A stretch of 64,000 nt of DNA from an uncultured Verrucomicrobiota bacterium (GTDB taxonomy: Bacteria; Verrucomicrobiota; Kiritimatiellia; CAIKKV01; CAYSLU01). Of the stretch, positions 888-58,594 are shown in pieces (the first letter of the stretch is position 1; each line of letters opens with the position of its first letter). Made by a program: the position numbers and the translations under genes. Where the stretch lies: positions 899 to 64,898 of the forward strand of contig CAYSLU010000013.1 of NCBI GenBank assembly GCA_964431965.1, given 5' to 3'. Under the pieces are notes generated by a model. It searched no databases and was not told where the DNA came from. It worked only from the letters and a program-made list of their open reading frames with translations.

Positions 888-1985
888 ATGAGCACGCGGT
901 TGGCTTATCTGGACGGCGACTGGGATCAGGCGCGCGATGTGTTCACGTCATGGTGGCGGCACCAGAAGCCGTCGCGGCCGCTCATCTCCGTCCAAGGCCC
1001 TCGCGAGAGGCCGATTCCGGGGCCGAAGGCGCCGCCGGCGCCGGCCGATGCGAAGGCCATGTGGCTCGACTCCGAGGGCAACCTGGCCCGGTTCGAGCAG
1101 CACCTTCGGAAGAACTGGCATGGCGGGGCCTGCTTCCCCTACATCACCGCCGGGCTGGGCCCGGGCAACATCAACCTCTACCTCGGCTCCAAGCCGGGCT
1201 TTGCGCCGGACACCGTCTGGTACAATCCGTGCTTCGACGATCCCGCCAAGGCCGATCTGAAGTTCGACCCCGACAACGAGTACTGGCAGTGGACCCTCCG
1301 CACCACGCGGCTCTACCAGCAGGCCGCGCGCGGCAAGTTCGTCTGCGGCATCCCCGACCTGATCGAGGGGCTGGACATCCTGGCCGGCGTGCTGGGCACC
1401 CAGGAACTGCTGGCGTACCTGCTGGACTGCCCGCAGGAAATCCACCGCTTGCTTCGGCAGATGGACGATCTCTACTGGAAGTACTTCGACCCGCTGTACG
1501 ATATCGTCAAGGACGAGAGGGACGGCAACGCGTTCATCGCCTTCCAGATCTGGGGGCCGGGGCGAACGCTCAAGACCCAGTGTGACTTCGCGGCGATGAT
1601 TTCGCCGGACATGTTTGCCGAGTTCGTGTGCCCGTACTTGGAGCGACAGTGCGCGCGGGCGGACTTCTCGGTGTTCCATCTCGACGGCCCCAGCTGCATC
1701 TGCCACCTCCCGTTGTTGCTGAAGGTGCCGAGCTTGAAGGCGATCCAGTGGACGCCCGGTGCGGGGTCCCTGAGCTCCAACTCAGCCAGTCCCGTCTGGT
1801 GGAAGACGATCTGGGAGAAGGTCTACGCCTCGGGCAAGTCGGCGCTGGTGCTGGGTAACCCGCCCGAGCTAGTCGAGCCCTTCCTCAAGGAGTTCGGCTG
1901 GACCGGAACCTTCCTGAGCACGGGCTGCGACACCGAGGGCGCCGGACAGCGGATGCTGGCCGACTCGATGAACTGGGGCTCGTAG
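888..1985 (+). CDS. hypothetical protein, possibly a URO-D/MtaA-like TIM-barrel enzyme
   Basis: A 383-aa ORF with non-repetitive composition. The preferred start is the in-frame ATG at 888 (MSTRLAYLDGDW...), preceded by the SD-like AGAAGGGGA. It is divergent from ileS. The family assignment is a weak impression only. Confidence 0.5.
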   Translation: MSTRLAYLDGDWDQARDVFTSWWRHQKPSRPLISVQGPRERPIPGPKAPPAPADAKAMWLDSEGNLARFEQHLRKNWHGGACFPYITAGLGPGNINLYLGSKPGFAPDTVWYNPCFDDPAKADLKFDPDNEYWQWTLRTTRLYQQAARGKFVCGIPDLIEGLDILAGVLGTQELLAYLLDCPQEIHRLLRQMDDLYWKYFDPLYDIVKDERDGNAFIAFQIWGPGRTLKTQCDFAAMISPDMFAEFVCPYLERQCARADFSVFHLDGPSCICHLPLLLKVPSLKAIQWTPGAGSLSSNSASPVWWKTIWEKVYASGKSALVLGNPPELVEPFLKEFGWTGTFLSTGCDTEGAGQRMLADSMNWGS

Positions 1986-4519: not shown

Positions 4520-6007
4520 GTGATGCTGCCGGACAAGGTGAAGCAGAAGCTGCGGGCGCTGCCCGATCAGCCGGGCTGCTACATCATGCGCGATGCCCGC
4601 GGGTCGATCATCTACGTGGGCAAGGCCGCGTCCCTGCGCAAGCGCGTGCAGTCCTACTTCCGCGACGCGACGGCGCGGCGCGGCGATCCCAAGGTCCGCA
4701 GCCTGGTGCACAGCGTCGCGGACCTCGACCTCATCGTGACGCGCACCGAGGCGGAGGCGATCCTGACCGAGGGGCAGCTGATCAAGGACTATCGGCCCCG
4801 GTACAACGTCAGCTTCCGCGACGACAAGCGCTTCCTCCTGCTTCGTGTGAATCCCGCGGATCCGCTCCCGGAGTTCAAGGCCGTCCGATTCTCGCGGGAC
4901 GACGGCGCCCGCTACTTCGGGCCATACGCGTCATCGGCCGCCGCGCGGGCGGCGCTGGACTTTGTGGAGAAGCGCTTTGGCATCCGGAAGTGTCCCCCGA
5001 GGGTTCCCACCGAGGAGGATCATCGCCACTGCATAAACGACATCGTCCGGTTCTGCTCGGCCCCGTGCATCGGGAAGGTGACGGCGGCGGAGTATCACGC
5101 GCGAGTCGCCGAGGCCGGGGCATTCCTGGAGGGCGAGCGCCCCGAGCTGCTGAAGGAGTTGCGTGAGGCCATGACAGCGGCGGCGGCGGCACGTGAGTTC
5201 GAGCGGGCGGCGGCGCTGCGGGACACGCTCCTGCTGCTGCAGGCGGTCGTCCGTCAGCGGAACCGGCTGGGCCTGACGCCGGAGCTGGCCGCGTCCGAAG
5301 GCCTGGCTGGCGTGGCGGAGCTGCAGCGCGTCCTCGAGGCGGATTCCCCCCCCCGCGTGATCGAGGCGTTCGACATATCCAACATATCGGGCACGCACTC
5401 CGTTGCGAGCATGGTCTGTGCGGTTGACGGGATCCCGCAGCGGAACCGCTACCGGCGGTTCCGCATCCGGACGGTCGAGCAGTCCGATGATCCGGCGATG
5501 ATGGCGGAGGTGATCCGCCGCCGGTATCAGCGCGTGCTGGCGGAGGGGGCCGCGCTGCCGGATCTGGTGCTGGTCGATGGCGGCATCACGCAGCTCCAGG
5601 CCGCGCGGCGGGAGCTTGAGCGGCTCGGCCTGCGCCAGCTGGCGGCGGCGGGGCTGGCGAAGCGGTTCGAGGAGCTCTACCGGCCGGGGCGGAGCGAGCC
5701 GCTGCTGCTGCCCCGCGATTCCCGCGCGCTGCGGGTGCTGCAGCGGCTGCGCGACGAGGCCCACCGGTTCGCCCTGACGTACCATCGCCAGCTGCGGGCG
5801 CGCCGGCTGCGCGATTCCGCGCTCGACGACGTGCCCGGCCTGGGCGAGAAGCGCAAGCGGGCCCTCCTGGAGCGGTTCGGGTCGCTGCGCCGCCTGATGC
5901 GCGCGTCTGCCGATGAGATCGCGGGGGTGGCGGGGATCGGACCGGGGCTGTCGCGTTCGGTCCTCGAGCACCTGGGTGTCGTGGCTCCGGCCGATGGGGA
6001 GCCCTGA
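4520..6007 (+). CDS. uvrC: excinuclease ABC subunit C
   Basis: It has a GIY-YIG N-terminus (GCYIMRDARGSIIYVGKA), a UVR motif (EFERAAALRDTL), an RNase H-like endonuclease block (RVIEAFDISN) and a C-terminal (HhH)2 (VPGLGEKRKRALLERFGS...IAGVAGIG). At 495 aa it is compact. Confidence 0.85.
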   Translation: MMLPDKVKQKLRALPDQPGCYIMRDARGSIIYVGKAASLRKRVQSYFRDATARRGDPKVRSLVHSVADLDLIVTRTEAEAILTEGQLIKDYRPRYNVSFRDDKRFLLLRVNPADPLPEFKAVRFSRDDGARYFGPYASSAAARAALDFVEKRFGIRKCPPRVPTEEDHRHCINDIVRFCSAPCIGKVTAAEYHARVAEAGAFLEGERPELLKELREAMTAAAAAREFERAAALRDTLLLLQAVVRQRNRLGLTPELAASEGLAGVAELQRVLEADSPPRVIEAFDISNISGTHSVASMVCAVDGIPQRNRYRRFRIRTVEQSDDPAMMAEVIRRRYQRVLAEGAALPDLVLVDGGITQLQAARRELERLGLRQLAAAGLAKRFEELYRPGRSEPLLLPRDSRALRVLQRLRDEAHRFALTYHRQLRARRLRDSALDDVPGLGEKRKRALLERFGSLRRLMRASADEIAGVAGIGPGLSRSVLEHLGVVAPADGEP

Positions 6008-30182: not shown

Positions 30183-30869
30183 CTACTCCACAATCGTCCG
30201 CAGCCTCTCGACGCGATGCTTTCGCAGGAACTCCTTCAGAAACTGAACCGCGACGGGGGTGTCCTGGATCTCGTAGTACTCCTCCCCGGTCTCCAGCTGC
30301 CTCCACATCTTGGCCGTCAAGGACTGGGCGAAGTCGACGTTCTCCGGGTCGAGTCCCTTCGCGATCTCGACCTCGTCGATCGGCTTCCCGTCCCGGAACC
30401 CGTTCTCGCGCCGCAGCCAGAGATTCTGCACGGCAATCTCTGCGGGGAAGTCGCGCGCGGCGATCTCGGCTAGCACGCCGTGGTCCTGCCGAAAGTATCG
30501 GAACCGGATCCGCGATTCATCCGACTCGCGGTCGAAGACGACGAGGTGGAGCAGGTTGCTGTGTGCCCGGAGGCAGATCGGCACTCCGGGGCCAACCCAG
30601 AGGACCTGCCGTCCCTGCCAGGGGATGGAGAGGTACGTGGTGTCGTGCTGAAAGAACTCCGCTTTCGGCGTGCTGAGGAGGTGGACCGCTCCGAACGACT
30701 TGTACTTCAAGCCCCAGCGCTCGGCGTGCTCCCGGTAGTCGATGAACCTGCCCGGCTCAACTTCCGCCCTTCCCCTGATGTCGACCGCCTCGCGCACGAG
30801 CCGGTTCTCCACGCCGCGGCAGACGGACGGCAGCAGCAGGAGAAAGAGCAACGGGAGTCTCGGGCTCAT
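30183..30869 (-). CDS. secreted hypothetical protein
   Basis: The signal peptide is MSPRLPLLFLLLLPSVCRG. Length is 228 aa. No motif was recognised. Confidence 0.55.
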   Translation of the reverse strand: MSPRLPLLFLLLLPSVCRGVENRLVREAVDIRGRAEVEPGRFIDYREHAERWGLKYKSFGAVHLLSTPKAEFFQHDTTYLSIPWQGRQVLWVGPGVPICLRAHSNLLHLVVFDRESDESRIRFRYFRQDHGVLAEIAARDFPAEIAVQNLWLRRENGFRDGKPIDEVEIAKGLDPENVDFAQSLTAKMWRQLETGEEYYEIQDTPVAVQFLKEFLRKHRVERLRTIVE

Positions 30870-31034: not shown

Positions 31035-31946
31035 CTACCCGACCGCCACAAGGACCAGGCCGGCGAACATGATGAGCACGCCGACAAGTTTGGGGCCGTG
31101 CGGCGGTTCGCGCAGAACGAGGATGCCGAAGGTCGCGCCCAGCGGGATGCTGAGCTGGCGGAACGCCACGACGTAGCTGATGTTGCTCACGTGTGCCATG
31201 GAGACCAGGACGAGCGCGTAGGCGGCATAGATCACGGCGCCGGCCGCGGCGGCGTGCGGGAGGTGTGCGCGGACGGTTTCCTTGAGGTTCAGGCGGCCTT
31301 CGCGGCGGGGAAGGATGAATAGCAGGAGCCAGAGCGACGTGATCGCGCCGTCCAGGCACAGGTAGAGGAGCGTGATCGCCGGCACTCCCCAGCCGTCGGC
31401 TGCGGCGCCCCGCAGTCGGCGCAGTGCTTCATCGTCCACGAGCGAGTAGCCGGCCGTCCCGAACGCCGCTATCAGCGCGAGCGCGCACGTGGCATTCAGA
31501 TAATGCCGGACGTGGATCTGCGAGAATCTCTGCATGGGGAGCAGGAAGCATCCCGTCACGACGAGCACGATGCCGGTGACGCAGCCCATGCCGACCTGGG
31601 TCCGGCGGCCGAGCGCGAAGGTCACGAGGGCCACGAGCAACACGGGCACTGAGCGCGCCAGCGGGTAGGCCACGGACATATCCCCCGCGCGGTACGCGCC
31701 GGCGAGCGCGGCATAGTAGACGGCCATGAAGAAGCCGGTCGCCAGCAGCAGCGGTCCGACATCGGCGAGCGCGCGGATGGCCGCGCCGTCGAGGCCGCGG
31801 ATGAGCACCGGCAGGAGCAGCAGGGAGCCGGTTGTGTTCGCCAGAAGGAAGAACGACGCCGACGGGTGCCGGCTCTTCGTAAAGAGGTTCCACCCCGCGT
31901 GCATCACGGAGGAGAGGAGGATCAGGATGATGGCGGCGAGCGTCAT
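31035..31946 (-). CDS. DMT-superfamily (EamA-like) transporter
   Basis: It has ten predicted TM helices arranged as two duplicated EamA-like halves. Length is 303 aa. Confidence 0.8.
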   Translation of the reverse strand: MTLAAIILILLSSVMHAGWNLFTKSRHPSASFFLLANTTGSLLLLPVLIRGLDGAAIRALADVGPLLLATGFFMAVYYAALAGAYRAGDMSVAYPLARSVPVLLVALVTFALGRRTQVGMGCVTGIVLVVTGCFLLPMQRFSQIHVRHYLNATCALALIAAFGTAGYSLVDDEALRRLRGAAADGWGVPAITLLYLCLDGAITSLWLLLFILPRREGRLNLKETVRAHLPHAAAAGAVIYAAYALVLVSMAHVSNISYVVAFRQLSIPLGATFGILVLREPPHGPKLVGVLIMFAGLVLVAVG

Positions 31947-32060
31947 GACCGGCGGATGCTACGCTGGGACCCGCCGGGGATCAACGCGCGGATTGGCGTA
32001 GCAGCGGGGCATGCTGTGAGCTCGCTCTACGTGGCCGGCGAGCTCGCCCGGGTTCCGACA

Positions 32061-32696
32061 GGTAGGGCGGTCTCGCCGAGACCGCCGCGTGTAGGCGGAC
32101 TGCGCGATACGAGACAGCTCGACGGATTGGGCCGAAGGGCGACACGCCAGCCCGGCCCATCTGGGCGGTTGCCGGGGGACGGCACATACAGGAGTATGGT
32201 GCCGCCCCCGGCGCCCGCCCATCTGGACCAGTCTGACGTATCGCCCTTCGGGCCTCTCGCAGACTCGGGGCGACCCAATCCGCCTCGCGGGTCGCCCCGT
32301 TCCGTCGCGGACTCGGAACGGTGGGTCAGGGTGACCTTCGACACTCTGCTGTTCCTGGTCTGCCGGGTAGGGCGGTCTCGCCGAGACCGCCGCGTGTAGG
32401 CGGACTGCGCGATACGAGACAGCTCGACGGATTGGGCCGAAGGGCGACACGCCAGCCCGGCCCATCTGGGCGGTTCCCGGGGGACGGCACATACAGGAGT
32501 ATGGTGCCGCCCCCGGCGCCCGCCCATCTGGACCAGTCTGACGTATCGCCCTTCGGGCCCCTCGCAGACTCGGGGCGACCCAATCCACCTCGCGGGTCGC
32601 CCGTTCCGTAGCGGACTCGGAACGGTGGGTCAGGGTGACCTTCGACATTCCGCTGTTCTTGGTCTGCCGGGTAGGGCGGGCTCGCCGAGACCGCCA
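32061..32696. repeat. tandem direct repeat with a ~305-bp unit, 2 full copies plus a ~27-bp start of a third, each unit beginning with the hairpin GGCGGTCTCGCCGAGACCGCC
   Basis: Unit 1 is 32061-32365, unit 2 is 32366-32669 and the partial unit 3 is 32670-32696. The two full units differ at about 8 positions plus one 1-nt indel. A 304/305 unit is not a multiple of 3. Several internal inverted repeats are present. There is no credible ORF in the region. Confidence 0.9.
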
Positions 32697-32769
32697 TACC
32701 GTTCACGGTATCGGCTCTGCGGGCGCGAAAGAACGATCGGGCGAAACGGATGCCGTCCGCAGTCACCTC

Positions 32770-33591
32770 TCACGGCGCCGGCGTGAAGGTCCGGATGGCC
32801 TCTTGTGCCTGCTCGACGTCGTCCGAGTTCAGGATGTCGGCGCCCATGGCGAGGCGCTCGTGATAGAGGCCAAGCCCCTCCTGGCGGGCGCGGCGGTCCA
32901 CCTCCAGGAATGTGCCGTAGGTGGTGAGGATGCCTTCGTCGTGCAGGCGCTCGAACACCTCGGGAGGGGTCTCGTCGTGGATCCACGCGACGAGCCGCTC
33001 GTGCGGGATGCCGGACGAGAGCAGGTCGCGCATGTGCGCTTCGTTGGTGGCGCGCCCGTACACCATGACATCGGGGTCCAGTTGGTGGGCCCGCACGGTG
33101 TCCACGATGGCGTAGGTCAGGACGACGCAGCACGTGTGCTGGCGCCGTTCGCGGACATGGCGGAGCACGCGCCCCCAGGCGTCGCCTTCCTCCTTGATGT
33201 CCAGGAACACCACGGTCGTGCCTGCTGCCCAGTCCATCACCGCGTCGAGCGTCTCGACGGTCTGGTCAAGCACCCGGTGTTCCTCGTCCTTGAGGCGCAG
33301 GCTCCGCAGTTCGGCGAGGGTGCGCTCCGAGAGGTCGCCCGTGCCGGTGGTGCAGCGATCGAGGGTGCGGTCGTGGTTCAGGACCAGCGAGCCGTCCCGG
33401 GTGGTGCGCACGTCCACCTCGGTCCAGCAGCCGGACGCTTCCCATGCCCGGCGATAGGCCGCGAGCGTGTTCTCCGCGAAGCCGATGGGCGGCGCCCCGC
33501 GGTGGGCGAGGATGGCGGCTTCGCGGCCCGGGAGCCAGCGCATGTACTCGTAGAGATCGCTCGGCCGCTTGAACTGGATCGGACTGGGCAT
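32770..33591 (-). CDS. glycerophosphodiester phosphodiesterase family protein (GDPD/UgpQ-like)
   Basis: The in-frame ATG is at 33591 (MPSPIQFK...). ILAHRGAPPIGFAENTLAAY and TEVDVRTTRDGSLVLNHD are the GDPD catalytic His/Arg and Glu/Asp blocks. The upstream 588 aa of the 861-aa track ORF are noise. Confidence 0.8.
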   Translation of the reverse strand: MPSPIQFKRPSDLYEYMRWLPGREAAILAHRGAPPIGFAENTLAAYRRAWEASGCWTEVDVRTTRDGSLVLNHDRTLDRCTTGTGDLSERTLAELRSLRLKDEEHRVLDQTVETLDAVMDWAAGTTVVFLDIKEEGDAWGRVLRHVRERRQHTCCVVLTYAIVDTVRAHQLDPDVMVYGRATNEAHMRDLLSSGIPHERLVAWIHDETPPEVFERLHDEGILTTYGTFLEVDRRARQEGLGLYHERLAMGADILNSDDVEQAQEAIRTFTPAP

Positions 33592-47836: not shown

Positions 47837-50005
47837 ATGAGATCAGCGGGACATGCAGGGCGGCGGATGGCGGCGGGTATCCTGGCGGGCGCGGCAGCGA
47901 TCGGCGGGGCGCGGGACGGGCTGGGGGCCGGCGGTACGAACGCCCCGGCAGGTACCCATGCGGCGACACGCGCGACGGAGGCCGGGCATCTGGTGATCGT
48001 CACGGCCAGCCGCTTCGAGCGCCAGTGGCAGGAGCTGCCGGTCAGCGCGAACAGCATCCCCGGCGAGACCATCCGGATCGACCGGGCGGCGCGGACGGTG
48101 CCTGAGGCGCTGAAGGGAGTCCCCGGCGTCATGGTCCAGAAGACGGCCCAGGGCCAGGGCTCTCCCTACCTGCGCGGATTCACCGGCTTCCGCACCCTCT
48201 TCCTCATCGACGGCGTCCGGCTCAACAACTCGGTCTTCCGGGACGGCCCGAACCAGTACTGGAGCACGGTCGATCCGCTTAGCCTCAAGGGGATCGAACT
48301 CGTCAAGGGCCCGGCGTCGGTTCTCTACGGCAGTGACGCCATCGGCGGGGCCGCGAACGCGCTGACCGCCAGCCCGGAGTTCGGCGATGGATTCCTGTGC
48401 CGGCGCCGGCTTTACTATCGCGGGGCCACGGCCGATCGCTCGACGGTTGCGCGTGCGGAAGCCAGCGCGGCGTCCGGGCAGAAAGCGGGCGCGGTGGCCG
48501 GGATATCGTGGAAGGACTTTGGCAACGTTCGCGCGGGCGGAACGGTCGGCGAGCAGCCCAAGACCGGCTACAGCGAGCTGGATTGGGACGCGAAGGTCGC
48601 CTACCGCCCCGACCGGCGGTCGATGCTGACCGTGGCGCATCAGTCCGCCGATCAGGACGACGTCTGGCGCGCGCACTCGACGGCGTACGGGACCTGGTGG
48701 CGGGGCGCGAAGCCGGGCTCGGACCAGCAGCGCATCCTCGACCAGACGCGCCACCTGACGTATGCGCAGTATGACGTCGGCGACCTCGGCTCGTTTGCAG
48801 ATCGCATGAAAGTGGGCGTCTCGCACCAGGTACAGGACGAGGACCAGTACCGGGTGCGAAAGGACGGGGCCGCCGACAGCCAGGCGTTCTCCGTGAACAC
48901 CGTCGGCTCGTTCATTCAGTTCGAGAGCCCGAGCAGCCTCGGCAACTGGGTGTACGGCGCCGAGTACTACCACGACGGCGTCGACTCGGTTGGGCTCAAG
49001 TACGCGGCCGACGGGTCCGTGAAGAGCCGGGCCGTGCAGGGGCCCGTGGCGGACGACGCCACCTACGACACGCTCGGCGCCTTCGTGGAGGACACGGTGC
49101 CGCTGGGCGGCCGCGTCAGCTTCGTGCCCGGCCTCCGCTACACCTACGCAGCAGCCGACACCGAGCAGGCGGCGGATCCACTGACCGGGAAGGCCATGCC
49201 CGTGGACGGCGACTGGGACACCGTGGTCGGCAGCGCCCGCCTGCTCGTCGCGCTTGACGAGCAGCAGCTCTGGCACGCCTTCGCGGGGGCGTCCCAGGGC
49301 TACCGCGCGCCCAATCTCTCCGATCTGACGCGCTTTGACATCGCCCGCTCGGGCGAGCTCGAGACGCCGGCGCCCGACCTGGACCCGGAGCGGTATGTGA
49401 CGTACGAGACGGGCCTCAAGGGACTGGCCGGCCGGTGGCAGGCGCAGGCGGCCTACTACTACACCGACATCCGGGACATGATCGTGCGGGTCCCGACCGG
49501 CCGCACGGTGGACGGCGCGACCGAGGTGACCAAGAAGAACTCCGGGAACGGCTATGTTCATGGAGTGGAAGCAGAGGGGCGGTACCGGATCGTCGAGGAT
49601 TTGGCCGTGTTCGGCTCCGCCTCGTGGGCGCGGGGCGACGTGGACACCTACGCCACCTCCTCGCCGGACCTGTCCCGGGAGCCGATCGACCGCCTGATGC
49701 CCCCCGCGGGGACGCTGGGGCTGCGGTGGGATCTGGTTCGCGGCTTCTGGCTGCAGGGGGAGTGCACGGCGGCGGTCAAGCAGACCCGACTGTCGCCGGG
49801 CGACGTCGCCGACACGCAGCGCATCCCGTCCGGCGGCACGCCGGGCTACACGGTGTGCGAGGTGCGCGCCGGCTGGGACGTCTCCAAGGATCTCCGCCTG
49901 GCGGTCGCATGCGAGAACGTGGCGGACGTCGACTACCGGATCCACGGATCCGGCGTCAACGAGACCGGCCGCAACTTCGTCCTCAGCGCCGAATACGCGT
50001 TCTGA
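47837..50005 (+). CDS. TonB-dependent outer-membrane receptor
   Basis: It has a plug domain (GVMVQKTAQGQGSPYLRGF...LIDGVRLN), a long beta-barrel and a C-terminal aromatic residue (EYAF). GAGGAG precedes the ATG at 47837. Confidence 0.85.
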   Translation: MRSAGHAGRRMAAGILAGAAAIGGARDGLGAGGTNAPAGTHAATRATEAGHLVIVTASRFERQWQELPVSANSIPGETIRIDRAARTVPEALKGVPGVMVQKTAQGQGSPYLRGFTGFRTLFLIDGVRLNNSVFRDGPNQYWSTVDPLSLKGIELVKGPASVLYGSDAIGGAANALTASPEFGDGFLCRRRLYYRGATADRSTVARAEASAASGQKAGAVAGISWKDFGNVRAGGTVGEQPKTGYSELDWDAKVAYRPDRRSMLTVAHQSADQDDVWRAHSTAYGTWWRGAKPGSDQQRILDQTRHLTYAQYDVGDLGSFADRMKVGVSHQVQDEDQYRVRKDGAADSQAFSVNTVGSFIQFESPSSLGNWVYGAEYYHDGVDSVGLKYAADGSVKSRAVQGPVADDATYDTLGAFVEDTVPLGGRVSFVPGLRYTYAAADTEQAADPLTGKAMPVDGDWDTVVGSARLLVALDEQQLWHAFAGASQGYRAPNLSDLTRFDIARSGELETPAPDLDPERYVTYETGLKGLAGRWQAQAAYYYTDIRDMIVRVPTGRTVDGATEVTKKNSGNGYVHGVEAEGRYRIVEDLAVFGSASWARGDVDTYATSSPDLSREPIDRLMPPAGTLGLRWDLVRGFWLQGECTAAVKQTRLSPGDVADTQRIPSGGTPGYTVCEVRAGWDVSKDLRLAVACENVADVDYRIHGSGVNETGRNFVLSAEYAF

Positions 50006-50050
50006 TGCGGGCCCCGCGCGACGCGGCGGCCGCCCCGGGCCGGCGCGCAC

Positions 50051-50205: not shown

Positions 50206-51438
50206 ATGAAACCGACATCGGGCGGGGCGGATCACCGGCATGCGTCTCCCGAGCGGCGGCGCAGCATGCTCGGGCTGGTCGGCATGATCGTGCTCGTCGG
50301 CATGGGCGAGCACATGGCCGAGCGCTTCTTGCCGCTGTATCTGCAGCAGCTGGCGCAGGCATCGACCGCCGTTCTGGCGATCGGGCTCCTAGCGGGGATG
50401 GACGACCTGCTGTCCGCGCTCTACTCCTTCCCGGGCGGCTACTTGAGCGACCGGCTGGGCACGAAGCGCGCGCTCCTGTTCTTCAATGCCCTGTCGATGG
50501 CCGGCTACCTGTGCGTCATCCTGATCCGGTCCTGGTGGGCGGTCCTGATTGGCGCGGCCCTCTTCATCTCGTGGTCGGCCATCTCGCTTCCGGCCACGAT
50601 GGACCTGCTCGCCCGGATCGTGCCGAAGAACCGGCGCACCATGGGCGTATCGATGCTGGCGCTGGTCCGGCGCGTGCCGAAGATGCTGGGGCCCGTCGTC
50701 GGCGGAGCGTGCATCGCGGCCTGGGGCGTCGAGCAGGGCGTGCGCGCGGCGTTCATCCTGGCGCTGGGCCTCGCACTGGCGGCTTCCGTGCTGCAGCAGG
50801 TGATGATCGCCGAGGATCCGAAGGGCGACCGGACGGCCGAGGCGAATCCGCTGCGGCTGTGGCGCGAGATGCCGGCCGGCCTGAGGAACCTGCTGTGGTC
50901 GGACATCCTGATCCGCTTCTGCGAGCGCATCCCGGATGCGTTCGTGGTCATCTGGGCTACGCGGTACATCGCGAGCCCCGTGTCGGAGCTGGCCTTCGGC
51001 TGGCTGTCCGCCCTCGAGAACGTCACGGCCGTCCTGGTGTATGTGCCCGTGGCGTACATGGCGGACCGCTTCGGAAAGAAGCCGTTCGTGCTGATCACCT
51101 TCGCGTTCTTCACCTGCTTCCCCCTGGCGCTGCTGCAGGCGCACTCGCTGGCCCCCCTGGCGGCGGCGTTCGTGCTGCGCGGGCTCAAGGAGTTCGGCGA
51201 GCCGACGCGCAAGGCGCTGATCATGGATCTGGCGCCGGAGGGGCGCAAGGCGGCGATGTTCGGTCTCTACTACCTCATCCGCGACGTGCTCGTCGCGTTC
51301 GCGGCCTTCGGCGGCGCCCTGCTGTGGCGCGTGTCGCCGGAGCTGAACCTGAAGGTCGCGTTCGGTTTCGGCGTGCTGGGCACGCTCTGGTTCGCGTGGC
51401 GCGGGCGCGACTGCACGGCCGGGCGGCCGGCGGCATGA
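50206..51438 (+). CDS. MFS transporter
   Basis: It has twelve predicted TM helices and an MFS-like loop motif GYLSDRLGTKR between TM2 and TM3. Confidence 0.8.
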   Translation: MKPTSGGADHRHASPERRRSMLGLVGMIVLVGMGEHMAERFLPLYLQQLAQASTAVLAIGLLAGMDDLLSALYSFPGGYLSDRLGTKRALLFFNALSMAGYLCVILIRSWWAVLIGAALFISWSAISLPATMDLLARIVPKNRRTMGVSMLALVRRVPKMLGPVVGGACIAAWGVEQGVRAAFILALGLALAASVLQQVMIAEDPKGDRTAEANPLRLWREMPAGLRNLLWSDILIRFCERIPDAFVVIWATRYIASPVSELAFGWLSALENVTAVLVYVPVAYMADRFGKKPFVLITFAFFTCFPLALLQAHSLAPLAAAFVLRGLKEFGEPTRKALIMDLAPEGRKAAMFGLYYLIRDVLVAFAAFGGALLWRVSPELNLKVAFGFGVLGTLWFAWRGRDCTAGRPAA

Positions 51439-51470: not shown

Positions 51471-51491
51471 GATACGAGACAGCTCGACGGA
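51471..51491 (+). promoter_or_regulatory. third copy of the 21-nt motif GATACGAGACAGCTCGACGGA, about 100 nt upstream of the NYN gene
   Basis: The same 21-mer occurs at 32106-32126 and 32411-32431 inside the tandem repeat units. Confidence 0.5.
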
Positions 51492-51587: not shown

Positions 51588-52412
51588 ATGAGCCATCAGT
51601 CCGAGACGAGAAACATGGCGGTGTTCTGCGACTTCGAGAATATCGCGCTGGGCGTGCGGGACGCCAACTACGCCAAGTTCGACATCGACAAGGTGCTCGA
51701 GCGCCTGCTCCTCAAGGGCAACATCGTGGTGAAGAAGGCCTACTGCGACTGGAGCCGCTACAAGGAGTTCCGGCCCTCGATGCACGAGGCGTCGTTCGAG
51801 CTCATCGAGATCCCGCACCTGCGGCAGTCGGGCAAGAACTCCGCGGACATCCGGATGGTCGTGGACGCGCTCGACCTGTGCTACACGAAGGGGCACGTGG
51901 ACACCTTCGTGATCGTCAGCGGCGACTCGGACTTTTCGCCGCTGGTGAGCAAGCTGCGCGAGAACGACAAGACGGTGATCGGCGTGGGGGTGCGGAATTC
52001 GACGTCCGACCTGCTCATCGCGAACTGCGATGAGTTCATCCACTACGACGACCTGGTGCGCGCGCAGCCGGCCCGCGCGCCGGCCCCCCGGTCCGCCTCC
52101 GGGCGGAGCCGCTCCGCGGCGGCGGGCGAGGCCGAGAAGCCGGCCGCGCCATCGGCGGACTCGAAGGACGACGCGCTGAACCTGATCCTCGAAACCTACG
52201 ACGCGCTGGTCGAGGAGCGCGGGGAGGGGGAGAAGATCTGGGGCTCGATGATCAAGCAGACCCTGAAGCGCCGCAGGCCGGGCTTCAGCGAGTCCGCGTA
52301 TGGGTTCCGGACGTTCGGACTGCTCCTCGAGGAGGTTGAGGCGCGCGGGCTGGTGAAGCTCGAGCGCGACGAGAAGTCCGGCGGCTTCATCGTTCGACGC
52401 GTGCGGCCGTGA
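51588..52412 (+). CDS. NYN-domain (PIN-like nuclease) protein with a C-terminal OST-HTH/LOTUS domain
   Basis: MAVFCDFENI...VIVSGDSDFSPLV is the NYN/LabA signature. The C-terminal ~80 aa (LILETYDAL...IWGSMIKQTLKRRRPGFSESAYGFRTFGLLLEEVEARGLV) fit OST-HTH. Confidence 0.8.
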   Translation: MSHQSETRNMAVFCDFENIALGVRDANYAKFDIDKVLERLLLKGNIVVKKAYCDWSRYKEFRPSMHEASFELIEIPHLRQSGKNSADIRMVVDALDLCYTKGHVDTFVIVSGDSDFSPLVSKLRENDKTVIGVGVRNSTSDLLIANCDEFIHYDDLVRAQPARAPAPRSASGRSRSAAAGEAEKPAAPSADSKDDALNLILETYDALVEERGEGEKIWGSMIKQTLKRRRPGFSESAYGFRTFGLLLEEVEARGLVKLERDEKSGGFIVRRVRP

Positions 52413-54113: not shown

Positions 54114-55070
54114 ATGCCGCCGTTGTCCGCCTACATCCGATGGCAGCCGCCGATGGTGCGGGTTCTGCAGGCGAGCATCCCGCTCGCGGCGGGGGCCGTG
54201 TACTTTTTCGGCTGGCGGGTTCTGATGCTGCTCGTCGTGGTGAACGCCGTCGCGTACGTGTCGGAGTACCTGTTCACACGCCAGTGGAAGGAGCCGGTCA
54301 CCTCAGCCGTCTTCGTCACGGCCACGCTGTTCACGTTCTCGCTGCCGCCGACCATTCCGGTCTGGATGGCCGTTGTGGGGATCGTGTTTGCGGTGGTGTT
54401 CGGCAAGATGGTGTTCGGGGGATTCGGGCGGAACGTGTTCAACCCGGCGCTGACGGGGCGGGCGTTCCTGTACATCAGCTTCGGGCTGCAGATGACCGCG
54501 ATGTGGTCCGAGCCCGTCGGCGGGACGATCGGCGGGTTCGGCGCGTGGGCGTCGGACGCGATCACAAGCGCCACGCCCGGCATGCGCCTCAAGCAGGGCG
54601 AGCTGTTCGACCTGTGGCCGCTCTTCGTCGGGACGGCCTCCGGCACGATCGGGGGGAGCAGCGCGCTGCTGGCGCTGCTGGGCGGGATCTACCTGCTGTG
54701 GACGAAGACGGCCAACTACCGGATCGTCGCGTCGTGCTTCGCGGGCTTCCTTCTGCCGCAGGCGGCGCTGTGGCTGGCGAAGGTTCCGGCCGCGGCCGAT
54801 CCGCTGCATGCCGTGCTGGCCGGCAGCTTCGTCGTCGGCGCGTTCTTCTATGCCACCGACCCGGTGTCGGCCTCGCAGACCAAGCCGGGCCAGTGGATGT
54901 ACGGGGCCTTCATCGGGCTGATGTCGTGCCTGATCACGATCTACTCGGTGTGGCCGGCAGGGACGATGTTCGCGGTCCTGCTCGCGAACATGTTCGCGCC
55001 GATCACGGACTACACGATCCGGCTGCGGCAGGCGAAGGCGAAGGCGGGGACCGCGGCCAAGCCGGCTTGA
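54114..55070 (+). CDS. nqrB: NqrB/RnfD-family membrane subunit with an FMN-threonine motif
   Basis: GGAGGG lies 5 nt upstream of the ATG at 54114. FGGFGRNVFNPA and DAITSATPG (FMN attachment) are the family signatures. At 318 aa it is short for NqrB. Confidence 0.75.
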   Translation: MPPLSAYIRWQPPMVRVLQASIPLAAGAVYFFGWRVLMLLVVVNAVAYVSEYLFTRQWKEPVTSAVFVTATLFTFSLPPTIPVWMAVVGIVFAVVFGKMVFGGFGRNVFNPALTGRAFLYISFGLQMTAMWSEPVGGTIGGFGAWASDAITSATPGMRLKQGELFDLWPLFVGTASGTIGGSSALLALLGGIYLLWTKTANYRIVASCFAGFLLPQAALWLAKVPAAADPLHAVLAGSFVVGAFFYATDPVSASQTKPGQWMYGAFIGLMSCLITIYSVWPAGTMFAVLLANMFAPITDYTIRLRQAKAKAGTAAKPA

Positions 55071-55090
55071 GCGGCGGCGGGCGGGGTGAC

Positions 55091-55708
55091 ATGGCGGATC
55101 GATCCATAGCGCGGGAGCGGGCCTACACCCTGGGGTTCATGACGCTGGTGACGCTGGTCATCACCGGCCTGATCGCCGGGCTGCAGCTGCTGACGGCCGA
55201 GCAGGTCGAGCGGAATGAGAAGCTGTTCCTGAAGCGGGCCGTGATGGCGGCGGCCGGGGTTCAGCCTCCCGCCGATGCGGCGGGGATCGAGCGGTGGTAC
55301 GAGGCGCACGCGCGCCCGCTGGACGCGGCGAATCCCCGGGAGCCGGCGTTCGCGGTGGTGGACGAGGCGACGGGCGCGACGCAGGGGTATGTGTTCGTGC
55401 GCAGCGGCGCGGGGCTGTGGGGGACAATCCGGGCCGCGGCCGGCCTGGACGCCGCGCTCGAGCGGTTCACGGGCGTGACCTTCACCGAGCAGCAGGAGAC
55501 GCCGGGGCTCGGGGCGCGCATCGACGAGGCGTGGTACAAGGAGCAGTTCCGGGGTCGGCAGGCTCCGCTCACGCTGCGGCCCGAGGGCACCCGCTCCCGG
55601 GCGGCGGGCGAGGTGGACGCGATTACGGGCGCGACGATCACGAGCCGGGCGGTACAGGGCATTCTGAATCGGACCCGGGCCGGGGCGGCGGCCGCGCTCG
55701 GCCGCTGA
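55091..55708 (+). CDS. nqrC: NqrC/RnfG-family FMN-binding subunit
   Basis: It has a single N-terminal TM helix and the DAITGATITS FMN-attachment motif. Confidence 0.8.
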   Translation: MADRSIARERAYTLGFMTLVTLVITGLIAGLQLLTAEQVERNEKLFLKRAVMAAAGVQPPADAAGIERWYEAHARPLDAANPREPAFAVVDEATGATQGYVFVRSGAGLWGTIRAAAGLDAALERFTGVTFTEQQETPGLGARIDEAWYKEQFRGRQAPLTLRPEGTRSRAAGEVDAITGATITSRAVQGILNRTRAGAAAALGR

Positions 55709-55729
55709 GGCCGGCGCGGGGAGGGCGAC

Positions 55730-56362
55730 ATGGCACAATCCAAGGTGCGGCGGGTATTCCTCGACAACATGGGGGCGAACAACCCGGTCTTTGTTCAGAT
55801 CCTGGGGATCTGCTCGACGCTGGCCGTGACGAACGTGGTCCTGAACACGATCGTCATGTGCGTGGGGCTCATCTACACGACGGCGCTGTCGAATCTGACG
55901 GTGTCCGCGCTGCGGCGCTGGATCCCGTCGCGCATCCGCATGATGGTCGAGGTGCTGATCATCGCCGCGTACGTGATCGTCGTGGACCTCGTGCTTCGCG
56001 CCTTCTACCCGGACATCTCGCGCCAGCTCGGGCCGTACGTGGGGCTGATCATCACCAACTGCATCGTGATGGGGCGAACCGAGGCGTTTGCGCTGAGCAA
56101 TCCGCCCTTCCTGTCCTTTGTGGACGGGCTGTCGGCGGGGCTTGGCTATTCGTACATCCTGCTGCTGATCTCGGTGCTGCGGGAGCTGCTGGGCTCCGGG
56201 ACGATCCTGGGGTTCCGCGTGATGGCGGCGGGGTGGGTGAACTGGTCGATCATGGTCATGGCGCCGGGCGCGTTCTTTATGCTGGCAGTGCTGATCTGGA
56301 TCATCCGCGTGTACTGGCTGAAACCGAAGGCGGCCGCCGGCGGGCAGCCGGCCGGCGCGTGA
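55730..56362 (+). CDS. nqrD: NqrD/RnfE-family membrane subunit
   Basis: NNPVFVQILGICSTLAVT is a typical NqrD/RnfE N-terminus. The protein is 210 aa with six TM helices. Confidence 0.85.
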   Translation: MAQSKVRRVFLDNMGANNPVFVQILGICSTLAVTNVVLNTIVMCVGLIYTTALSNLTVSALRRWIPSRIRMMVEVLIIAAYVIVVDLVLRAFYPDISRQLGPYVGLIITNCIVMGRTEAFALSNPPFLSFVDGLSAGLGYSYILLLISVLRELLGSGTILGFRVMAAGWVNWSIMVMAPGAFFMLAVLIWIIRVYWLKPKAAAGGQPAGA

Positions 56363-58114: not shown

Positions 58115-58594
58115 GTGAAGCAGAGCCCGGTCTATGATCGCATCGAGGCCGCCATGCGGCCTGGCGCCATCACGCGCGACGGTTTCCTGGGGGCTGACAC
58201 CCGGCGGCTGTCCGAGATCCTGGATGCCGATGCGGGGGATGTGAAGCGCCTCGGGTTCTCGCACCAGGCGCTGGCCGCGCGGATGCGCGCTCTGCGCGAC
58301 GCGGCCGCCGCCGGGCTGGGCGAGCCGATCGAGGTGGGCGAGCACCTCGAGGTGCGGGTCGATGCCGCCCGCGGGCGCCTCCCGTGTCCGTTCGGCGACT
58401 GCGGGCTCCACGAGAAGACCTTCGTCGTAGCGCGGAACCGGCGCACCGGACGCGAGCTCACGTATTCCGACTTGAACATCCACCTCATCGAGCGCCACGG
58501 GTTCTACGAGGGGCTGGGCGCGGCGTTCCGGGTGGCGCCGGCCGACATCGTGGCCGTGCTGGAGCCCGAGCCGGATCCGCGGGAGGGAGCATGA
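58115..58594 (+). CDS. hypothetical protein (GTG start)
   Basis: The protein is 159 aa, and GGAGGTGG precedes the GTG at 58115. A CPFGDCGLHEK Cys pair is present. No family was recognised. Confidence 0.5.
   Translation: MKQSPVYDRIEAAMRPGAITRDGFLGADTRRLSEILDADAGDVKRLGFSHQALAARMRALRDAAAAGLGEPIEVGEHLEVRVDAARGRLPCPFGDCGLHEKTFVVARNRRTGRELTYSDLNIHLIERHGFYEGLGAAFRVAPADIVAVLEPEPDPREGA

Follow-up and report, generated by a model that had tools for sequence, protein, structure and literature searches.

A head-to-tail cluster of three GTAG-type REPs probably accounts for a 305-nt tandem repeat between a GDPD and a DMT transporter gene in a PVC-group MAG

A tandem repeat that separates a DMT/EamA-family transporter gene from a glycerophosphodiester phosphodiesterase (GDPD) gene in the window (the whole 64-kb stretch of DNA analysed here) can best be understood as three head-to-tail GTAG REPs that form a cluster and bracket two copies of an inner segment, X. 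We favour, at a probability of about 0.6, the explanation that this cluster was amplified by recombination and now forms a structured intercistronic spacer. The array is a further case of REP clusters that are already known as a kind, its long palindromic spacer and its head-to-tail layout being unusual.

Results

The repeat comprises unit 1 (32061-32365, 305 nt) and unit 2 (32366-32669, 304 nt), which align end-to-end at 97.4% identity with seven mismatches and one 1-nt indel (BLAST E 1.8e-147), followed by the start of a third unit (32670-32695) with one mismatch against the unit start. A sequence-only reading of the same DNA had described two near-identical units of exactly these lengths, and this was confirmed; the third-unit start, which it put at about 27 bp, is present and measures 26 nt. 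It had also let the repeat fill a 0.8-kb gap between the two genes; the gap is indeed 823 nt long (31947-32769), but the repeat occupies 636 nt of it. The layout is REP-X-REP-X-REP, with X measuring 279 nt in unit 1 and 278 nt in unit 2. Homology between the repeated parts begins with the first base of GGTAG and ends with the last stem base of REP copy 3. The base 5' of GGTAG is A at copy 1 and G at copies 2 and 3, and the sequence 3' of the last stem base is GCGTG at copies 1 and 2 and ATACC at copy 3, the latter being a near mirror image of the GGTAG head. The phase of the 305-nt repeat is set by the REP edges and is not arbitrary. Tandem Repeats Finder (TRF) reported no array here, presumably owing to the low copy number of about 2.1, but a repeat search and BLAST did detect it. 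The features are collected in Table 1.

Table 1. Positions of the array, its component parts and the neighbouring genes in the window
Feature	Position	Strand	Description
DMT/EamA-family transporter gene	31035-31946	-	303 aa; downstream of the repeat on the sense strand; homologues carry PF00892
Probable relic of ancestral short GDPD-DMT spacer	31947-32000	-	hairpin CCGGCGG..CCGCCGG (31949-31977) just upstream of the DMT ATG; aligns with the L010 spacer
Unique left flank of extra DNA	32001-32060		12-nt palindrome GGCGAGCTCGCC (32037-32048); without counterpart in the relative L010
REP copy 1	32061-32086	+	GGTAG head and palindrome with 10-bp stem and 1-nt centre; same 26-mer in many metagenome contigs
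Inner segment X1	32087-32365		279 nt; small hairpin, 21-mer GATACGAGACAGCTCGACGGA (32106-32126), long hairpin, two short hairpins, tail
Long imperfect hairpin, unit 1	32129-32254	-	61-nt arms, 4-nt loop; better fold on the - strand
Two short hairpins, unit 1	32266-32321		CGGGGCGACCC..GGGTCGCCCCG and CCGTTCCG..CGGAACGG; -25 and -13 kcal/mol
REP copy 2	32366-32391	+	identical to copy 1; junction of units 1 and 2
Inner segment X2	32392-32669		278 nt; seven mismatches and one 1-nt deletion relative to X1
Long imperfect hairpin, unit 2	32434-32559	-	-113.2 kcal/mol (- strand) vs -90.6 (+ strand)
REP copy 3	32670-32695	+	GGTAGGGCGGGCTCGCCGAGACCGCC, one stem mismatch; repeat homology stops at its final base
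Unique right flank of extra DNA	32696-32769		from REP 3 to the GDPD stop; hairpin ATACCGT-TC-ACGGTAT (32696-32711); without counterpart in L010
GDPD gene	32770-33591	-	273 aa; PF03009, E 7e-20; upstream of the repeat on the sense strand

The boundary hairpin consists of GGTAG followed by GGCGGTCTCG, a central C and CGAGACCGCC, and the three copies read GGTAG + GGCGG(T/G)CTCG-C-CGAGACCGCC. Its 21-nt palindrome, GGCGGTCTCGcCGAGACCGCC, lies at 32066 and 32371, where the strong hairpin said to open each unit was duly found, and again, with one mismatch, at 32675; each of the three REP stems is worth about -17 kcal/mol. Elsewhere in the 64-kb window the palindrome is absent even when three mismatches are allowed (0.03 chance matches expected), and the window holds no other GTAG-plus-palindrome besides the three array copies. 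The GTAG head stands on the + strand in all three REPs, which are therefore arranged head-to-tail.

By definition, a REP of the GTAG superfamily has a 5' GT(A/G)G head directly before a GC-rich palindrome whose centre is tiny, and such REPs are known from the PVC superphylum, in Opitutus terrae and Rhodopirellula baltica (PMC2817692; PMC3733652). All three copies in the array have such a head and a short-centred GC-rich palindrome, and all are extragenic, lying in the 823-nt gap without coding signal. They also belong with dispersed variants of complementary stem, found in metagenome contigs. A scan of a metagenome collection with the bare palindrome GGCGGNCTCGNCGAGNCCGCC matched at least 120 contigs, and among the matches listed GTAG stood directly 5' of the stem, on the C-centre strand, in at least 57 instances outside the window that had enough flank. 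In these metagenome contigs the variable stem bases differ from instance to instance and yet are complementary (T-A, C-G, G-C), and the flanks are unrelated and diverse. Among the REP loci listed, 116 GTAG-headed hairpins were counted in 0.79 Mb, against 5-6 for five of nine control tetranucleotide heads, and 36 contigs carried at least two GTAG-headed hairpins. Sister stems (GGCGCG.., GGACGC.., GGACGG..) have the common apex CTCGCCGAG, and on the same contigs there are sister palindromes, GGCGCGCTCGCCGAGCGCGCC, GGACGCCTCGCCGAGGCGTCC and GGACGGCTCGCCGAGCCGTCC, which are GTAG-headed and fall outside the scan pattern. Two-sided changes were seen in six of the nine REP stem pairs, a count that is partly circular since the instances were chosen as palindromes. 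The GTAG head together with the dispersed, complementary-stem variants thus identifies the boundary hairpin, as judged from sequence, as a GTAG-tagged REP of a family widespread in metagenome contigs. No report of this precise sequence came up in searches of paper texts and supplements. No Y1-transposase domain or RAYT (REP-associated tyrosine transposase) was present among the window genes, and no convincing RAYT gene was found near the REPs in the metagenome loci with a crude HUH-motif filter.

Tandem reiteration of REPs along with their flanks has been described before (PMC3733652, section 5), and several metagenome contigs of the boundary-REP family show layouts of comparable kinds. One carries a REP and its flank as a 96-nt head-to-tail pair (L164), another four head-to-tail REP copies that recur about every 52 nt (L222), and a third a REP mosaic of more than 1 kb in which 170-182-nt units are repeated at 568-nt spacing (L130). 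In two others composite REP-bearing units are repeated 1-2 kb apart (L148 and L114). Inverted REP doublets of the same family exist as well, for example in L115, L184 and L196.

The repeat region is clearly non-coding. GC content by codon position is flat, at 0.67-0.71 in all six repeat frames compared with 0.69/0.46/0.89 in the flanking genes, no ORF within the repeat gave a Pfam match, and an artificial 605-aa concatenated six-frame translation of the unit, a search aimed also at spurious ORFs annotated over other copies, found no match among 5.8 billion proteins. When one unit was tiled through all reading frames, four stops were met on the + strand and one on the - strand. These in-frame stops and the flat codon-position GC rule out a protein repeat, which the sequence-only reading had rightly thought unlikely, although its statement that every frame is stop-free proved wrong. 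Nor is GC lower in the repeat than in the flanking genes, as had been claimed: it is 0.70 in the repeat, 0.68 in DMT, 0.69 in GDPD and 0.695 in the window. No tRNA or tmRNA was detected in the repeat region, and a reading of the repeat as either was rejected.

Beyond the array, the 64-kb window is ordinary chromosome, with genes for UvrC, glycogen metabolism, two-component systems, a TonB receptor and Nqr, and no transposase or integrase was found in it. The UvrC protein is 100% identical to one encoded on a 75.5-kb NCBI contig, and its nearest named relatives, at 62-71% identity, belong to Lentisphaerota, Kiritimatiellia and Verrucomicrobiota, which assigns the source to the PVC group. The closest relative found, on Logan contigs L010/L011, has a DMT that is 74% and a GDPD that is 82% identical, in the same gene order as the window (Aldolase_II-DUF7657-GDPD-DMT-466aa-GFO), with a spacer of only 34 nt from GDPD to DMT. 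In the window, the 45-55 nt upstream of the DMT start align with this 34-nt spacer, including the relative's GDPD stop context TTGATCC, and the GDPD coding alignment ends a few codons short of the GDPD stop in the window, the last codons being different. Since the spacer and GDPD alignments to the relative end there, about 0.78 kb (roughly 32001-32776) is extra at the GDPD 3' end. This DNA, array included, is absent from the one syntenic relative available, and alignment to that one relative makes a gain in the window lineage, rather than a loss in the relative, the probable polarity. More distant DMT homologues, from 80 GTDB genomes and none above 58% identity, did not keep the GDPD-DMT synteny and lacked the REP. 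Both flanking genes in the window lie on the - strand, and neither sigma-70-like promoter sites nor hairpin-plus-U-tract terminators were found in the gap, so that the array is probably transcribed as part of a GDPD-DMT mRNA.

Relatives of X were sought within the window and beyond it. Within the 64-kb window there was none, except for an exact copy of the 21-mer GATACGAGACAGCTCGACGGA at 51471-51491, which sits in another intergenic region; with the 21-mer discounted, the wider likeness of the unit to that region was no better than shuffles. The whole array gave no blastn match against plasmids and phages, the 21-mer gave no exact match in the genome and metagenome contig collections, a 23-mer from the apex of the long hairpin gave none in viral contigs, and X was not seen among the REP-bearing metagenome loci (at least 120, matches listed). 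A degenerate 20-mer from the hairpin arm had nine matches in viral contigs, which turned out to be due to chance, two of them lying inside Gly-X-Y (collagen-like) coding repeats. The DNA scans for X detect near-identical copies only, and the absence of X relatives is thus a weak negative.

A REP plus X, closed by a further REP, might also be regarded as a non-autonomous mobile element, mobilised in trans by a RAYT or an IS200/IS605-type single-strand transposase, with the diverged units representing tandem or successive insertions and not a local duplication. The edges of the units are exactly those of the REPs and the end hairpins are co-oriented, and IS200/IS605 ends likewise have hairpins of like orientation. 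The 0.78 kb is missing from the relative, the 2.6% divergence between units exceeds the expectation for a fresh duplication, the exact 21-nt X fragment in the intergenic region at 51471 could be a footprint, and boundary-family REPs occur within larger repeated units in other contigs. We nonetheless consider this reading rather unlikely: no second copy of X came to light in the window, in plasmids or phages, in the exact scans of genome, metagenome and viral collections, among the REP loci listed or among 5.8 billion proteins, the 64-kb window encodes no transposase, and inspection of the edges of the extra DNA disclosed neither terminal inverted repeats nor a convincing target duplication.

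The palindromes of X are a 7-bp hairpin, a 126-nt hairpin and the pairs CGGGGCGACCC..GGGTCGCCCCG and CCGTTCCG..CGGAACGG. The three further inverted repeats that had been noticed in each unit all exist, but one of them, CGGCACATAC-AGGA-GTATGGTGCCG, turned out to be only the apex of the 126-nt imperfect hairpin with its 61-nt arms. A complementarity of 9-12 nt, GGATTGGG/CCCAATCC, could lengthen the long stem. In unit 1 the long hairpin is predicted at -113.2 kcal/mol on the - strand (z -11.3) versus -96.0 on the + strand, with 54 pairs on the - strand, four of which are U.G. The greater stability on the - strand arises because four transition mismatches are U.G there and C.A on the + strand; this asymmetry is weakly consistent with selection at the RNA level, the two-sided probability of four out of four being only 0.125. 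The eight differences between the units fall in loops (three), in the 3' tail (three) and in stems (two), and both stem differences disrupt pairing, with no compensatory change.

These folds bear on whether X is a functional structured ncRNA, either an sRNA or a cis-acting leader of DMT, present in two copies on the - strand. Compared with shuffled controls the units form far more stable folds (z -9 to -15), the long hairpin gains 17-23 kcal/mol in stability on the - strand, which is the sense strand for both neighbours, and diverged tandem copies have persisted. However, any DNA palindrome folds well on either strand, the U.G asymmetry does not go beyond the probability given above, and the unit differences break two stem pairs without compensating for either. 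An Rfam search at E up to 10 returned no family at its gathering score and only sub-threshold GC-hairpin matches, the best being MIR1858, a plant miRNA precursor with a GC-rich hairpin model (42.4 bits against a gathering score of 137); a weak match to naRNA4, which is REP325-derived, reached 15 bits against 59.5. No homologue of X was found in the searches, no promoter-like site was found in the gap, and the relative on L010/L011 does without X. A dedicated RNA of this kind is accordingly judged improbable.

Exact look-ups of the flanking proteins retrieved nine Logan short-read contigs (k=31) from five sequencing runs, with an identical DMT protein in four and an identical GDPD protein in five. 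The nine contigs contain the flank-repeat junctions at 100% identity, and all of them end within the repeat, none spanning the array. Two left-hand contigs, from two runs, end at 32090 (= 32060+30), the last k-mer with the flank base 32060, and three right-hand contigs end at 32618 (= 32648-30), the last k-mer with the unit-2-specific base 32648. Unit-2-specific bases are present at 100% in the independent contigs L005-L009. The contig ends correspond to the de Bruijn branch points for the internal junction and for both unit variants, so that an artefact is unlikely. The repeat is real in the reads, and its two-copy number is as assembled. The flanking genes are 100% identical across the five runs and the units differ at eight positions (2.6%), which makes the very recent duplication proposed in the sequence-only reading doubtful.

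That the tandem array is an assembly artefact, in which a single unit with two strain variants was wrongly chained, is highly improbable. In favour of an artefact, the source contig is metagenome-derived, every short-read contig breaks inside the repeat with none spanning it, and the units differ as strain variants do. Against it, the ends at 32090 need a second predecessor of the GGTAG...GCGTG k-mer, either the junction between the units or a further copy of that junction, and no branch at 32061 is expected from a single-copy layout. Right-hand contigs with unit-2 bases at 100% identity stop at the predicted branch point 32618 (variant 32648), and the third REP is distinct from the first two both in its own sequence and in what follows it.

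Discussion

Under the REP-cluster reading, an ancestral REP-X-REP insert of about 480 nt with its flanks would have landed at the GDPD 3' end and would later have been duplicated by unequal crossing-over or replication slippage between its two direct 26-nt REPs, with REP 2 as the recombinant joint. REP 2 is the same as REP 1 where REP 3 differs, from which we infer either that the crossover fell in the first 11 nt or that the change in REP 3 came later. The GDPD-DMT RNA would then carry three REP stems and two near-perfect duplexes of about 54 bp. By analogy with REPs and BIMEs, ERIC and Correia elements, these stems would be expected to block 3'-5' exonucleases, protecting the upstream message from decay, and they are possible RNase III sites, at which the transcript might be attenuated or processed before DMT; expression of GDPD and DMT would thereby be uncoupled. 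We infer that any such effect on the RNA would arise as a by-product of selfish or recombination-driven DNA and not through a dedicated RNA gene.

Several points tell against the REP-cluster reading. Only three REP copies occur in the 64 kb, all of them at the array locus, and no RAYT or other transposase is encoded in the window. The REPs of BIMEs (bacterial interspersed mosaic elements) typically alternate, and head-to-tail arrangements are reported to be under-represented (PMC3733652). The reading leaves the origin of X and of the flanks unexplained, its polarity of insertion versus deletion is based on one relative, and the 2.6% divergence between units is older than the expected lifetime of an unselected, unstable tandem duplication. 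The partial circularity of the covariation count also applies here.

The main consequence is one of correct annotation: what had been put forward as a candidate novel ncRNA array should be filed with REP clusters. The "novel repetitive element" of the sequence-only reading is a repetitive element but not of a novel kind, its boundary hairpin being assignable to the GTAG REPs. The analysis also documents a GTAG REP family (GTAG-GGCGGnCTCGCCGAGnCCGCC and the sister stems with the CTCGCCGAG apex) that occurs widely in metagenome contigs and also in a PVC-group MAG, and it offers a clean example in which REP-bounded amplification appears to have pushed two once-adjacent genes, probably an operon, 0.8 kb apart. 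For specialists in REPs and RAYTs this is a mildly interesting case, largely explained. It is unlikely, in our estimate, that REP-X-REP is an undescribed kind of cargo element with a 279-nt payload, mobilised by a RAYT- or IS200-like enzyme, or that X is a lineage-specific structured RNA that regulates the downstream transporter through processing of its 126-nt duplex, by RNase III for instance; were X indeed mobile or an RNA, this would be relevant to the way in which REPs and RAYTs move DNA.

Comparison with known systems

Among the repeat systems considered, a CRISPR array was ruled out, since its would-be spacers, of 279 and 278 nt, share 97% identity, and X does not belong to any Rfam family at the scores given above (best 42.4 bits versus 137).

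The array resembles the palindrome-associated transposable elements (PATEs) derived from IS200/IS605 in its like-oriented end hairpins with a tetranucleotide at their foot, its short non-coding body and its lack of TIRs. PATEs have subterminal hairpins of like orientation and a tetranucleotide beside the hairpin foot, and are without TIRs. A transposase in the window, other copies and a defined target motif, in contrast, were not demonstrated for the array. RAYTs are themselves related to IS200 (PMC2817692; PMC3733652).

The 126-nt hairpin of X resembles the MITE-like palindromes of the ERIC/IRU, Correia and RPE type, which are intergenic and 100-160 nt long. Palindromes of these types are co-transcribed with neighbouring genes and are cleavable by RNase III; the families are defined by their many dispersed copies, and Correia elements have TIRs with TA duplications. 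In contrast to the ERIC/Correia type, no second locus of X was found and neither a TIR nor a target duplication was evident. As to TIR-type MITEs in general, the edges of the extra DNA have no TIR and only an ambiguous 5-nt ACGCC match, and the scans, which see near-identical copies only, found no further copy of X.

Enterobacterial BIMEs are, like the array, composite intergenic REP arrays with intervening motifs, and are sometimes tandemly amplified (PMC2817692). They differ in having alternating REPs with motifs of 10-40 nt, whereas the array has direct REPs and 279-nt spacers, and the regularly spaced alternation of BIMEs is lacking here, all array REPs being on the + strand. BIMEs within operons affect mRNA stability and termination, and the stems of REPs and BIMEs, ERIC and Correia elements act as barriers to 3'-5' exonucleases and are possible RNase III sites. 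REPINs are formed by inverted REPs as the arms of a long hairpin, and no GTAG-plus-palindrome lies in either arm of the 126-nt hairpin. The roles of REPs and BIMEs at the RNA level have been summarised (PMC3733652; PMC2817692).

Differences are also seen from the GTAG REPs, in that the reiterated flank here, at 279 nt, is of unusual length and forms a large palindrome of its own, the three REPs are all head-to-tail, which is rare according to the literature, and the stem is 10 bp long compared with 6-9 bp in most families. Nevertheless, the array has in common with the GTAG REPs (Nunvar et al. 2010, PMC2817692; Di Nocera et al. 2013, PMC3733652) the GT(A/G)G head, the perfect, GC-rich palindrome whose centre is very short, the extragenic position 3' of a coding region and between genes that run in the same direction, the complementary variants of the stem, and the occurrence of clusters in which a REP and its flanking DNA are repeated in tandem.

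The GDPD-DMT gene cluster in the window and in a syntenic relative

The final codons of the glycerophosphodiester phosphodiesterase (GDPD) gene differ between the window, where the protein ends in RTFTPAP, and the syntenic metagenome contig L010, where it ends in RTFRAEDAH. The original C-terminal codons of GDPD appear to have been replaced by the extra DNA, which would have supplied a new stop.

Next to the EamA-family transporter (DMT) gene, we noted an ORF of 228 aa, lying between DMT and a gene of 466 aa. Its codon GC was gene-like (0.66/0.39/0.89), and no Pfam match was found for it. The ORF is absent from L010, where the DMT and 466-aa genes are 71 nt apart, and it is a second lineage-specific addition to the gene cluster that holds the repeat array.

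The DMT start codon is preceded by a small hairpin, CCGGCGG-15 nt-CCGCCGG, which stops 3 nt short of it. L010 keeps a similar GGCGG..CCGCC stem, as well as the 22 nt that lie upstream of the DMT ATG, though the proteins are only 74% identical, and the hairpin may be an element of translational control or coupling.

The source lineage is poorly sampled. The nearest named relatives of its UvrC, at 62-71% identity, were from Lentisphaerota, Kiritimatiellia and Verrucomicrobiota, and no relative of the DMT gene closer than 58% was found in a genome collection of 185,579 species.

Short sequences recurring in the window

One 21-mer from the repeat unit, GATACGAGACAGCTCGACGGA, recurs without mismatch at a distant site (BLAST E 3e-5), where 149 nt of intergenic DNA separate an MFS transporter gene from a NYN-domain gene. 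No similarity beyond the 21-mer was detected around this copy, and an exact scan of the genome and metagenome collections returned 0 matches; the recurrence could reflect a footprint, a common binding site or coincidence. Separately, a GC-rich 46-nt motif (GCGTTCTGATGCGGGCCCCGCGCGACGCGGCGGCCGCC...) occurs at three sites with 70-74% identity; the motif could be terminator-like, or the match could be down to chance.

Locations of features (window coordinates unless a contig is named)
Feature	Location	Strand	Remark
UvrC	4520-6007
228-aa ORF	30183-30869	-
Hairpin before DMT	31949-31977
21-mer copies	32106-32126; 32411-32431; 51471-51491		exact
GDPD final codons	32770-32790; L010:4860-4889
46-nt motif	49997-50042		overlaps TonB-receptor gene end
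46-nt motif	55659-55704		within 55070-55730 gap
46-nt motif	58275-58320
MFS transporter gene	50206-51438	+
NYN-domain gene	51588-52412	+
GTAG REP loci	L130:1580-2680; L164:1182-1358; L222:30-230
GTAG REP loci	L148:3364-3830, 5369-5836; L114:573-666, 1648-1741		two sites per contig

The GTAG REP family in metagenome contigs

The GTAG-headed palindromes (REPs) with the apex CTCGCCGAG are widely carried by metagenome contigs of 57-66% GC, often inside larger repeated units or head-to-tail arrays; the sequence gave no match in the searchable literature. Inverted REP doublets also occur, for example GGTAG-GGCGGTCTCGCCGAGACCGCC-GC-GGACGCCTCGGCGAGGCGTCC-CTACC in contigs L115, L184, L193, L196 and L201. 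In contig L114, two REP copies bracket what looked, from translations alone, like a PIN-type toxin-antitoxin pair.
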